Positions 19,750-22,959 of a stretch of 64,000 nt of DNA are shown here, piece after piece. The notes under the pieces were generated by a model. That model saw only the letters and a program-made list of their open reading frames with translations, made no database searches and had not been told where the DNA came from. How positions within the stretch are numbered: position 1 is the first letter of the stretch; every line of letters starts with the position of its first letter. The position numbers were made by a program, and so were the translations under genes. This stretch comes from an uncultured SAR116 cluster alpha proteobacterium (GTDB taxonomy: Bacteria > Pseudomonadota > Alphaproteobacteria > Puniceispirillales > GCA-002684695), in the NCBI GenBank assembly GCA_902532475.1, contig CACAIE010000006.1, forward strand, positions 1,569-65,568. The letters run 5' to 3'.

Positions 19750-21027
19750 ATGTCTAAAAACATTGTTGTTTGTAGAAAATGTTTATTGAAATGGGAAGAC
19801 AGTAAAATTCCATTAGAATGCCCACATTGTTTTTCTAAAAAATTAATTGGTCACAGAGAATTAAATGATTTAAACATTGCCCATTTGGACTGTGATTCCT
19901 TTTATGCATCAATAGAGAAAAGGGATAATAAGGAACTTGAAAAAAAACCAGTTGTAGTTGGAGGAAGTCAGAGAGGTGTCGTCGCAGCAGCCTGTTATGT
20001 ATCAAGAAAATATGGAATTAGGTCTGCAATGCCAATATTTAAGGCAAAAAAACTATGCCCTGAAATAATTATAATTAGACCAAGAATGGAATATTATATA
20101 ACAATTAGTCGCAAAATTAGATCGATTATGGAAACAATAACTCCTTTAATCCAACCCGTTTCTATTGATGAAGCGTTTCTTGATTTATCTGGAACAGAAA
20201 AACTCCACAAAAATATACCTGCGATTTCTTTAATAAAATTGCAAAAAAGGATATTTAAAGATATTGGGATCACGGTATCAGTGGGGTTATCCTATAATAA
20301 ATCTCTTGCAAAATTAGCTTCAGAACAAAAAAAACCCAATGGTTTTTTTGTGCTTGGCAGGGATGAAGCTAGTGATTGGCTTTCAAAAAAACCTATTTCA
20401 ATTATTTATGGCCTTGGAACTTCCACAGTAAAAAAGTTGAACAATATTGGTGTATTTTTATGTAATGATCTTTTAAAATTTCCTTATTCTAAAATTGAAA
20501 AAATTTTAGGAGGAAATACTAATAAAATATTAAGTATAGCCTCTGGCATAGATGAAAGGCCTGTTGTCAAAGATACTGTTATTAAAAGTGTTTCTGTAGA
20601 GACAACTTTTACTAAAAGGTATAGTGAAAAACAAATTAAAAATGAGCTTCATTTGTTATGTCAGAAACTATCCAATAGACTAAAAGACAAGAGCTTTTTA
20701 GGAAAAACGCTAACACTGAAACTAAAAACATCTAATTTTAAGACATTGACAAGAACCATCTCATCAAAAGAGCCATTTCAAATGGCTCACCATTTGTTTT
20801 CAAATTCTGAACAATTATTAGAAATAGAGTTAAAAAAAGAAATTGAATATAGGTTAATAGGAGTTGGAGTGTCTAATTTAATAAATGAAAATGAAAACAA
20901 TCAAGGCTTTTACTTTAATGACCAGGTTGTTCAAAAGAAAAATAAACTGGAGAGAGCGTTAGATGATATTAATCAAAAAATAGGTTCAAATTCAACAAAT
21001 ATTGGCCGCCATTTTACTAATAATTAA
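19750..21027 (+). CDS. dinB: DNA polymerase IV with an N-terminal CxxC..CxxC extension
   Basis: HLDCDSFYASIE, YGIRSAMP, SIDEAFLD, LAKLAS...KPNG. Confidence 0.93.
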   Translation: MSKNIVVCRKCLLKWEDSKIPLECPHCFSKKLIGHRELNDLNIAHLDCDSFYASIEKRDNKELEKKPVVVGGSQRGVVAAACYVSRKYGIRSAMPIFKAKKLCPEIIIIRPRMEYYITISRKIRSIMETITPLIQPVSIDEAFLDLSGTEKLHKNIPAISLIKLQKRIFKDIGITVSVGLSYNKSLAKLASEQKKPNGFFVLGRDEASDWLSKKPISIIYGLGTSTVKKLNNIGVFLCNDLLKFPYSKIEKILGGNTNKILSIASGIDERPVVKDTVIKSVSVETTFTKRYSEKQIKNELHLLCQKLSNRLKDKSFLGKTLTLKLKTSNFKTLTRTISSKEPFQMAHHLFSNSEQLLEIELKKEIEYRLIGVGVSNLINENENNQGFYFNDQVVQKKNKLERALDDINQKIGSNSTNIGRHFTNN

Positions 21028-21031
21028 TTCA

Positions 21032-21040
21032 TGATATAAT
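21032..21040 (+). promoter_or_regulatory. Putative extended -10 promoter (TG-A-TATAAT) for the WNKNA-repeat gene
   Basis: Exact TGnTATAAT about 45 nt upstream of the ATG; the AT-rich background weakens it. Confidence 0.45.
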
Positions 21041-21084
21041 TAAAATGTTTTATTATTTATCTTAAACTTGAAGAGGTTTAAAAA

Positions 21085-21336
21085 ATGTCTGATCAAAAAT
21101 GGAATAAAAATGCTCTTAATTATGGTGAAAACAATCAAGAGAATTCTGCGGACGCATGGAACAAAAACGCTTTAAATTATGAAAATGAAAAGAGGGACAC
21201 CAAAAAGAAATTAAAGAATGATCAAGTTGGTTCCAAAAATGATCAATGGAATAAGAATGCAAATGGATATGGATTAACTGAAAGTAAAAACAATCAAGAT
21301 CCTTGGAATAAGAATGCTATGAATTATAAAAAATAA
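21085..21336 (+). CDS. 83-aa hydrophilic protein with four WNKNAxxY repeats
   Basis: GAGG RBS 8 nt before the ATG; W at residues 6, 25, 55 and 74; WNKNA copies differ only at synonymous positions. Confidence 0.85.
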   Translation: MSDQKWNKNALNYGENNQENSADAWNKNALNYENEKRDTKKKLKNDQVGSKNDQWNKNANGYGLTESKNNQDPWNKNAMNYKK

Positions 21337-21340
21337 TAAA

Positions 21341-21931
21341 TTAAAGACTTTTAAATTTCAAAAAATCATTTTTGTTGTCTATATCAAAATAAAATCCTTC
21401 TGATTTTGTATTAAATTTAACGAGGTTTTCTGAATTTTTATCTAGGATTTCTTTCCCACCTTTATCACCATTAAGAAAACACAATTGTTTGAAGTAATTC
21501 TTTCCAAAAATTACTGGGTTACCCGTTGTTTTTTTTCTATAAGGTGCAACGATTGTTGAACCTCCTCCATTTTGTTGATGGAAATCTATAATATCATTAT
21601 AATCATTTGTCGCTAATAAAGGCATATCAGCCAAGCAAATCATTGCTGAAGAACTATTTTTAGGCAAGTTCAAAACACCTGCTGATATTGATGAACTTAT
21701 TCCAGTCTCATAATTTTGATTATGAATTATATCAACTTTAAACCCTTTTAAAATGTTGCAAATTTCTTTATGGTTTCGGCCTGTAACAATAATTACTTTT
21801 TTTGCTTTGGAATTAATAATTTCATTTACTGTATGCAAGATCAGGGGTTTGTTATTTATCTCAGACAATAATTTATTTGATTTTCCATGTCTGGTAGATT
21901 TTCCCGCAGCCAAAACGATAGCGTCAGACAT
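21341..21931 (-). CDS. MocA-like molybdenum cofactor cytidylyltransferase
   Basis: LAAGKS.R.G..NKLL, GISSSI..G, LADMP, GNPV.F, GDKGG, DID. Confidence 0.88.
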   Translation of the reverse strand: MSDAIVLAAGKSTRHGKSNKLLSEINNKPLILHTVNEIINSKAKKVIIVTGRNHKEICNILKGFKVDIIHNQNYETGISSSISAGVLNLPKNSSSAMICLADMPLLATNDYNDIIDFHQQNGGGSTIVAPYRKKTTGNPVIFGKNYFKQLCFLNGDKGGKEILDKNSENLVKFNTKSEGFYFDIDNKNDFLKFKSL

Positions 21932-21939
21932 ATTTTAAC

Positions 21940-22959
21940 TCACGTAAATGTTATATTATTATGTGTTTGAATAATTTGCGCCATTATTGACACAGAAATT
22001 TCTGCAGGGCTTTTAGCAGAAATATTTAAACCAATAGGTCCATTTATTCTTTCTGTGTCTTTTTTACTAAAACCTGCATCAATTAAACGTTTAATCCTTG
22101 ATGCGTGAGTTTTTTTACTTCCTAGGCAACCAATAAAAAAAGCATCACTTTTGAGAGCTTGAAACAAAGCTGGGTCATCTAACTTTGGGTCATGAGTTAA
22201 CGTAACTATTGCTGTTTTTTTATCTATGGGATTTTTTGAAAAATATTCATCAGGCCATTTTTCTATTAATTTACCTAAAGGAAAACGATCTTTTGAAGCA
22301 AAGACTTTTCTTGGATCTATTATTTCAACAGAAAACCCACAGGAATTAGATAATGGCACCAATGTTTGAGCAATATGAACTGCCCCTATGATAATGATTT
22401 TTGAATTTGGGTAATAAGAATATTTAAACCATTTTTCATCTAAAGAAATTCCTGTATGAATATTCTTAAGTTTGCTAAATTGTTTTTTTACTTCAATTTC
22501 TGGATCATGGTCATTAGAAGTGTGAAAATTTACGTAATTTTTATGATTTTCCAAATCCATTGCAACTGAAAATGGCTTTCTATTGTTAATGGATCGTATC
22601 ATTTCATTTAAACTGTCAGAATAATTGTTAAAGTGTTCTATGTAGACAGATACTTCCCCCCCACAGGTTAATCCAACCTCCCAAGCTTTTTCATTGCTTA
22701 CACCAAATTTTAATATTGTTGAATTGCCACCATTTATGATTTCAAGAGATTTCTCTATAACAGAACCTTCAATACAACCACCAGATACTGAGCCAAAAAT
22801 TTCTGAATTTTCTGAAACCAACATTTTACTTCCTACTGGCCTGGGAGAACTTCCCCACGTTTTAATTACAGTAGCTATTGCAAATCTAATTTTTTTTTTG
22901 GTCCAAGTCTTTGCTTTTTCAAGCAACCCAAAATCTTCTGAAGTTTCTAAATACACCAT
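21940..22959 (-). CDS. XdhC/CoxI-family molybdoenzyme maturation factor
   Basis: WGSSPRP.GS, GSVSGGCIE, VGLTCGG, GAVHIA, LTHDPKLDD, PIGL.I.A..P.EI. Confidence 0.92.
   Translation of the reverse strand: MVYLETSEDFGLLEKAKTWTKKKIRFAIATVIKTWGSSPRPVGSKMLVSENSEIFGSVSGGCIEGSVIEKSLEIINGGNSTILKFGVSNEKAWEVGLTCGGEVSVYIEHFNNYSDSLNEMIRSINNRKPFSVAMDLENHKNYVNFHTSNDHDPEIEVKKQFSKLKNIHTGISLDEKWFKYSYYPNSKIIIIGAVHIAQTLVPLSNSCGFSVEIIDPRKVFASKDRFPLGKLIEKWPDEYFSKNPIDKKTAIVTLTHDPKLDDPALFQALKSDAFFIGCLGSKKTHASRIKRLIDAGFSKKDTERINGPIGLNISAKSPAEISVSIMAQIIQTHNNITFT

Follow-up and report, generated by a model that had tools for sequence, protein, structure and literature searches.

The window examined here is a stretch of 64,000 nucleotides from an uncultured SAR116 cluster alphaproteobacterium (assembly GCA_902532475.1, genome G000 in this work; contig CACAIE010000006.1). 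Just downstream of a dinB gene it contains a small open reading frame (ORF) on the forward strand, whose 83-amino-acid product, MSDQKWNKNALNYGENNQENSADAWNKNALNYENEKRDTKKKLKNDQVGSKNDQWNKNANGYGLTESKNNQDPWNKNAMNYKK, carries the pentapeptide WNKNA four times. We refer to this product as the WNKNA protein and to its relatives as the WNKNA family. The locus had been singled out in an earlier reading of the DNA letters alone (the original prediction), which offered two models: a disordered multivalent linker, or a multi-core precursor of a ribosomally synthesized and posttranslationally modified peptide (RiPP). A motif-bearing peptide of the protein is DQKWNKNALNYGE. The ORF and its four motifs are listed below, together with their conservation in a family alignment of 17 distinct sequences, whose overall identity ranges down to 43%.

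21085..21336, + strand: coding sequence of the WNKNA protein, 83 codons and a TAA stop codon, with a second TAA directly after it
21100..21123, + strand: motif 1, WNKNALNY, residues 6 to 13; W, N, K, N, A, L, Y, and the next Gly invariant in 17 of 17 sequences
21157..21180, + strand: motif 2, WNKNALNY, residues 25 to 32; W, N, K, N, A, and Y invariant in 17 of 17 sequences, with Asp two residues before the motif in at least 90%
21247..21270, + strand: motif 3, WNKNANGY, residues 55 to 62; W, N, K, A, and Y invariant in 17 of 17 sequences, the second Asn in 16 of 17 (Thr in locus L029)
21304..21327, + strand: motif 4, WNKNAMNY, residues 74 to 81; W, N, K, N, A, and Y, as well as Asp72 two residues before the Trp, invariant in 17 of 17 sequences

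The sequence statements of the original prediction on this ORF were all reproduced. The four cores start at residues 6, 25, 55, and 74, which corresponds to a Trp-to-Trp spacing of 19/30/19, and an Asp precedes the four Trp residues by 3, 2, 2, and 2 residues, respectively. The WNKNA codons of the four copies differ from each other synonymously only (aat/aac, aaa/aag, and gct/gca). In a six-frame translation of the 1.94-Mb assembly (33.6% G+C), approximately 0.48 WNKNA pentapeptides would be expected; six were observed, four of which reside in the 83-amino-acid ORF. The relaxed pattern W[NDQ][KR]N[AGS]xx[YFW] did not occur outside this ORF in the whole assembly.

Intact orthologues of 83 to 86 codons (ORF scan) and 52 to 90% identity were found in six of the seven other genomes of the genus, 61 related genomes having been searched. 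The seventh (G007, 83% complete) contained no orthologue and no dinB match either, so the locus is either unassembled or lost there. The orthologue of G005 (L002) starts with TTG instead of ATG, and the G006 copy (L006) contains ambiguous bases inside the gene. Nei-Gojobori counts were obtained for six ungapped orthologues (15 pairs), with W, N, K, N, A, and Y of the four motifs, 24 codons in total, defined as the core. The proportion of nonsynonymous differences (pN) was 0.00 for the core codons in all 15 pairs, at proportions of synonymous differences (pS) between 0.00 and 0.86. The linkers displayed pN values of 0.05 to 0.58 and pS values of 0.19 to 0.73; their sequence evolves close to neutrally. 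The same contrast extends to the whole family: all 17 sequences agree at 23 of the 24 core positions, and 16 of them have Asn at the remaining one. Linker length is maintained, with Trp-to-Trp spacings of 18 to 19, 30 to 33, and 19 residues in 17 of 17 sequences. A full-length ORF of 80 to 87 codons was present in 18 of 20 loci (3 genomic and 17 metagenomic), the other two being cut by contig ends, and the repeat number did not vary, all 18 encoding four motifs. Purifying selection acts on the peptide motifs, as had been suggested from the window alone, and this conclusion is fully supported.

The family carries no name in the databases searched. The window protein yielded no profile match at an E value of ≤10 in Pfam-A, NCBIfam, PADLOC, or PHROGs, and two of its relatives matched PHROGs only at E values of 0.04 to 2.4 (three of unknown function and one terminase). 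A phmmer search against 1.84 billion representative sequences returned 15 matches at an E value of ≤0.001, of which 13 were small proteins or fragments bearing the WNKNA motif. The other two (P0015 and P0016) are low-complexity repeat proteins and were dismissed as spurious, as was a 30-amino-acid open frame in G052 (E = 0.1). With the family profile, the gene was detected in seven of the order's 192 genomes; all seven belong to family f1, which consists of a single genus, and the 184 genomes of the other three families yielded no match. Metagenome contigs contributed 17 further loci, including those of an uncultured sister lineage (L029 and L030). A phage origin was considered and rejected; none of the relatives resided on a viral contig, and the window protein had no PHROG or PADLOC match. 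The ESM Atlas contained only "hypothetical protein" clusters (75 and 74 members), none of them named, and no name for these proteins was found in public sources. Literature searches on WNKNA returned no related work, and those on SAR116 small proteins and intrinsic disorder nothing relevant among the matches listed. The orphan status proposed earlier thus changes in one respect, since homologues sharing the motif exist, and stands in the other: no match to a characterized family was found. Sequence comparison gives good support to the view that the WNKNA proteins constitute a previously unnamed, lineage-restricted small-protein family of unassigned function.

Five catalogue entries (P0010, P0012, P0014, P0032, and P0033) start as a WNKNA protein and then continue into unrelated sequence. 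Two of them resemble fusions, to a DnaA-like AAA+ protein (P0032) and a DnaQ-like exonuclease (P0033). Both are singletons, located on contigs of 1,053 and 706 nucleotides, in which the sequence jumps without transition to an internal part of the second protein. P0033 is regarded as an assembly chimera, because its residues 1 to 41 match G003 at 98% whereas its exonuclease part matches that of the genus at only 42 to 45%; P0032 was rejected by analogy. Judged from these entries, chimeric short contigs inflate the apparent diversity of the family.

The sequence between dinB and the start codon contains putative signals for transcription and translation, as follows.

21013..21018, + strand: -35-like hexamer TTTACT, inside the last dinB codons; TTTACT, TTTAAT, TTTCAT, or TTCAAT among orthologous loci
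21032..21040, + strand: extended -10 box TGATATAAT, just 3' of the dinB stop codon; ATGnTATAA invariant in 7 of 7 orthologous loci
21073..21076, + strand: ribosome-binding site (RBS) GAGG, 8 nucleotides ahead of the ATG; a purine-rich RBS kept in 7 of 7 orthologous loci (GAGG, AGGTG, AGGTA, or AAGG)

Together, hexamer and box form a promoter-like site at 21013 to 21040, TTTACT-16-TATAAT with TG ahead of the -10 element. The match to the consensus is not significant alone, with 5 such sites against 6.2 ± 2.4 in shuffled sequences. Support for a promoter derives instead from the conservation of ATGnTATAA in all seven orthologous loci, beyond which the spacer diverges. The -35-like hexamer is a different matter, since the coding function of dinB alone may account for its conservation. 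Both the TGnTATAAT box and the GAGG site reported in the original prediction are present, each with comparative backing. Regulation by the SOS response was dismissed: the consensus pattern GTTC-N7-GTTC occurred 36 times in the window with up to one mismatch, 31 ± 6 being expected, and in neither promoter region. At the other end of the gene, the convergent mocA-like gene (21341..21931, − strand) leaves only 4 nucleotides between the two stop codons (21337 to 21340), and no terminator-like hairpin was detected between the genes; the two transcripts must hence overlap or end by other means. Four RNA runs contained 5 to 6% of the words of window positions 19750 to 22959, but what aligned from them was limited to parts of dinB and xdhC and left the WNKNA gene uncovered; being contigs and not reads, they bear neither way on its expression. 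Taken together, the comparisons show a genuine, lineage-restricted gene that is predicted to be transcribed independently.

In the window, the WNKNA gene follows dinB (DNA polymerase IV, with IMS and IMS_C domains) and precedes the convergent gene for a MocA-like nucleoside triphosphate transferase and xdhC. This neighborhood is common to 18 of the 20 loci. It is absent from L029 and L030, the most divergent loci (44% identity in the locus search), which contain none of these neighbors. In the sister lineage the gene lies downstream of the intrinsic terminator of an 82-amino-acid membrane-protein gene (TM82, P0017), has a -10-like box and an RBS of its own, and is convergent with a gene for a cyclic nucleotide monophosphate (cNMP)-binding protein, beyond which follow genes for a metallo-β-lactamase (MBL)-fold hydrolase, an aminotransferase, a coenzyme A (CoA)-transferase, and others. 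The corresponding site is present in G000 on contig C7 (45520 to 54188), where ten genes are 53 to 86% identical to those of L029. There, TM82 and the cNMP-binding gene are separated by only about 76 nucleotides with a terminator hairpin and no WNKNA gene. Sequence comparison thus places a unit of approximately 300 bp, comprising promoter, RBS, and ORF, at different chromosomal sites in two sister lineages, and the unit is kept after relocation. The different site in the sister lineage argues that the function of the WNKNA protein is independent of dinB, mocA, and xdhC, and DinB, MocA, and XdhC, which had been put forward as candidates for a complex, are unlikely partners. The comparison of neighborhoods proposed along with them gave a divided answer, a conserved context in most loci and an unrelated one in L029 and L030. 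In three closed genomes of other families, dinB had unrelated neighbors and no small gene of the WNKNA type was found.

Several observations concern the neighboring genes themselves. The DinB homologue (19750 to 21027, + strand) contains an N-terminal CxxC...CxxC arrangement (residues 8 to 27, zinc-ribbon-like) ahead of the IMS domain, and a similar N terminus occurs in the DinB of three other families of the order. In G003, dinB is broken into two ORFs, and so is xdhC (L010, 8669 to 9947 and 10866 to 11887). A metagenome contig (L018) that encodes a nearly identical small protein has both genes intact. The splits in G003 are probably frameshift errors of the assembly. TM82 is a predicted membrane protein that belongs to no Pfam family (G000 contig C7, 47758 to 48006; L029, 5755 to 6003). 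Its gene was detected in six of the order's 192 genomes, every one of them a member of family f1, and is broken by a stop codon in G005. Despite the same lineage restriction, TM82 was rejected as a partner of the WNKNA protein, because the WNKNA gene is intact in three genomes in which TM82 is either broken (G005) or was not found (G002 and G004).

The composition of the window protein is unusual for its genome, with 24% Asn and 17% Lys compared to 6.0 and 7.5%, respectively, in long ORFs. Gly accounts for 4 of the 83 residues (4.8%), and Cys, His, and Phe do not occur. The isoelectric point (pI) is 9.3 (8.8 to 9.8 across the family), and the net charge ranges from +2 to +10 in 17 of 17 sequences. 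In line with the lack of a hydrophobic core noted earlier, no hydrophobic segment was found, and the grand average of hydropathy (GRAVY) is −2.02 (−1.4 to −2.0 across the family). AlphaFold2 yielded a mean predicted local distance difference test score (pLDDT) of 55.4 and a predicted template modeling score (pTM) of 0.11 with an alignment of 8 sequences, and 55.5 and 0.12 with 17 sequences. No residue reached a pLDDT of 70, and the models contained single helical turns only, inside the motifs. Both runs are consistent with disorder. These properties predict a basic, disordered, cytoplasmic chain in which the four motifs are the only conserved features.

The picture of invariant short motifs in fast-evolving, predicted-disordered spacers is that of the multivalent short-linear-motif disordered proteins, a functional class and not a homologous family. 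We tentatively read the WNKNA protein as a tetravalent array of short linear motifs whose binding partner is encoded elsewhere, and give this reading somewhat less than an even chance. In the mechanism that we infer, the protein would act as a tetravalent array of (D-x-)W-N-K-N-A-x-x-Y, with the four identical motifs as its sole functional elements. Each motif would dock into a pocket, of one type for all four, on a partner that is most likely an oligomer and whose gene lies elsewhere in the genome; the linkers would do no more than hold the motifs apart, as flexible, polar segments of constant length (about 19, 30, and 19 residues from Trp to Trp). With four docking motifs on spacers of fixed length, one molecule could bridge or clamp several binding sites at once. 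The run of five consecutive invariant residues would point to recognition of an extended or turn conformation, or to recognition by an enzyme, rather than to one helix face. Binding, valency, and the nature of the partner are what we infer from these data. The linker model of the original prediction is consistent with this: predicted disorder, invariant motifs, and a spacing kept in 17 of 17 sequences speak for it, while the clients of the analogues that it named were not found in the carrier genomes searched.

Several points weigh against a motif array. No partner was identified. Low AlphaFold confidence on an alignment as shallow as 17 sequences is weak evidence for disorder. Five consecutive invariant residues would equally be expected of a site recognized or modified by an enzyme, or of an element that binds nucleic acid. 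A partner cannot be picked out by co-occurrence, since the distribution of the family, one genus-level lineage plus one sister lineage, is that of any lineage-specific gene; the genomes of the genus are 61 to 93% complete.

Comparison with known repeat proteins helps to place the architecture. Searching the family profile against the PDB produced a single match, the FxFG repeats of nucleoporin Nsp1 bound to importin-β (1o6o chain D; E = 0.0037, two stretches). Many identical motifs of Nsp1 each dock into a hydrophobic pocket of the partner. Nsp1 and the WNKNA family share a period of 19 residues; in both, charged, polar, disordered spacers surround a short aromatic motif that has K, A, and G at its flanks (KPAFSFGAK in Nsp1, NKNALxYGEK in the WNKNA family). 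Unlike this eukaryotic protein with dozens of FxFG copies, the WNKNA family has four copies of a W...Y core with two invariant Asn residues. The window protein does not qualify as an FG nucleoporin, as it contains no Phe and is encoded by a bacterial genome, and we know of no karyopherin-like partner in bacteria. The match is weak and composition-driven, an apparent resemblance of architecture and not homology. EPYC1 and the N-terminal repeats of CsoS2 are disordered as well and use 4 to 5 short conserved motifs with similar spacers to bind a multimeric client. Their pattern of conserved short motifs and divergent spacers is shared by the WNKNA family, without sequence similarity. Neither the Rubisco large subunit (PF00016) nor the bacterial microcompartment (BMC) shell domain (PF00936) was found in any of the 5 carrier genomes searched, positive controls being included, so these systems would share the logic but not the client. 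A bacterial counterpart of such sticker-and-spacer proteins in a streamlined marine heterotroph, with the array tying an oligomeric partner in the cytoplasm into a higher-order assembly or a condensate, appears rather unlikely.

Other explanations of the conserved motifs differ in what the motifs would contact. As a basic disordered protein, the WNKNA protein could bind single-stranded RNA or DNA, with Trp and Tyr stacking, Asn reading base edges, and Lys contacting phosphate, resulting in a chaperone-like or coating activity. Residues of the types W, Y, N, and K commonly line sites that contact bases, and this general chemistry fits the motif, as do a pI of 8.8 to 9.8 and the positive net charge of all 17 sequences. 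The gene also adjoins dinB in the genus; this adjacency is not kept in the sister lineage, however, and neither a match to a known nucleic-acid-binding family nor an SOS-box-like site near either promoter was found. The DnaA- and DnaQ-like fusions lend no help, each being a singleton whose contig spans about 1 kb at most, and one of them (P0033) a chimera. We consider nucleic acid binding unlikely. A stress protectant of the hydrophilin, late embryogenesis abundant (LEA), or GsiB type would shield by bulk physicochemical properties without a specific partner. GsiB and YciG (KGG repeats) are small, highly hydrophilic, disordered proteins with repeated short motifs, and the WNKNA protein resembles them in its size, its GRAVY of −2.0, its predicted disorder, and its repeats. 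It differs in that six positions are absolutely invariant in each of the four motifs (the Thr of L029 apart) beside near-neutral linkers, which points to stereospecific recognition and not a bulk property. Moreover, its Gly content of 4.8% is below the >6% that defines hydrophilins, no LEA, dehydrin, KGG, or CsbD model matched at an E value of ≤10, and a stress-type promoter was not apparent, the extended -10 box that is conserved being of the housekeeping type. Protection of this kind is improbable. Self-assembly, in which the aromatic motifs bind one another and the chain folds or condenses only as an oligomer, would account for four Trp and four Tyr residues at constrained spacing in an otherwise polar chain. 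The net positive charge and 17% Lys oppose self-association and nothing in the data points to it. We regard this explanation as quite improbable. That the ORF is not protein coding at all, but a chance frame or a repeat maintained at the DNA or RNA level, could be argued from an AT-rich genome and the lack of expression evidence. It is contradicted by motif synonymous sites near saturation at zero nonsynonymous change, a frame open over 80 to 87 codons in 18 of 18 full-length loci, conserved start codon, RBS, and -10 box, and the absence of Rfam matches in 20700 to 21700, and is hardly credible.

The second model of the original prediction was a leaderless multi-core RiPP precursor, in which each WNKNAxxY would be cross-linked by an unlinked enzyme, for example from Trp to Asn(i+3) or from Trp to Tyr, and then released. 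Its starting point proved real. A review gives dynobactin A as WNSNVHSYRF (PMC10125368), and the spacing W-N-x-N-x-x-x-Y of the WNKNA motif is the same as in that sequence. According to a second source, the radical SAM enzyme DynE forms a Trp(i)-Asn(i+3) ring and a His-Tyr ring (PMC11002830); the Trp and Asn(i+3) of ring 1 are invariant in 4 of 4 motifs. The position two residues before Tyr, in contrast, is occupied by L, N, M, S, V, D, I, K, or Q in the 17 sequences and never by the His that ring 2 requires according to the same source (PMC11002830). A leader is also lacking, since core 1 starts at residue 5 or 6 in 17 of 17 sequences and core 4 ends 1 to 3 residues before the stop codon. The WNKNA protein is therefore unlike the dynobactin and darobactin precursors (DynA and DarA) in having four cores, no leader, no ring-2 His, and no cluster. 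No match to the SPASM domain (PF13186) was obtained in the eight genomes of the genus (61 to 93% complete), whereas 8 of 14 controls were positive. As stated in the original prediction for the window, no radical SAM gene was present on its whole contig; the five PF04055 matches of G000 lie on contigs C105, C48, C70, C3, and C4. They correspond to MoaA, HemW, MtaB, RlmN, and LipA. G005, at 93% the most complete genome, encodes MiaB, HemW, RlmN, LipA, and one sub-threshold photoproduct-lyase-like match, so that the radical SAM proteins of both genomes belong to housekeeping families or fall below the cut-off. In contrast to the DarE and DynE systems, no candidate radical SAM/SPASM maturase emerged adjacent to the gene or genome wide. 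The inventory of G002 comprises HemW, MtaB, RlmN, LipA, and two B12-type enzymes below every family cut-off. These two B12-binding radical SAM proteins (L039, 808 to 2451, 548 amino acids; L048, 580 to 2592, 671 amino acids) were not found in G000 and G005; their best matches are a TIGR04013-family B12/radical SAM protein and KedN5-like C-methyltransferases, below every NCBIfam cut-off. All five carriers searched contain cytochrome P450 genes (3 to 5 matches each), which would offer another route to a cross-link, but none lies near the WNKNA gene and, in G000, none on the window's contig; a P450-type cross-link is unlikely. Among five carriers, YcaO was not found and a C39 export peptidase turned up in one, unlinked to the WNKNA gene; neither context, dinB/mocA-like/xdhC or TM82/cNMP-binding/MBL, includes a maturase, protease, or exporter. 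Despite the shared spacing, the dynobactin-like reading is poorly supported, and we consider a RiPP precursor very improbable.

Annotation is missing for most small proteins and lineage-restricted ("orphan") genes of uncultured ocean bacteria. Within this material, the WNKNA family provides an unusually clean signal: four identical eight-residue motifs frozen by selection in a drifting, length-constrained, predicted-disordered chain, encoded by a gene that was kept after relocation. Since the protein is short and has intrinsic Trp fluorescence, binding tests would be cheap and peptide synthesis feasible. Multivalent motif arrays are, to our knowledge, well known in eukaryotes and rarely documented in bacteria. 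If the sticker-and-spacer interpretation is true, the motif and its receptor pocket would represent a new bacterial recognition pair that arose within a single lineage. If the motif serves as a docking ligand, it would be a new bacterial short linear motif, implying a novel receptor.

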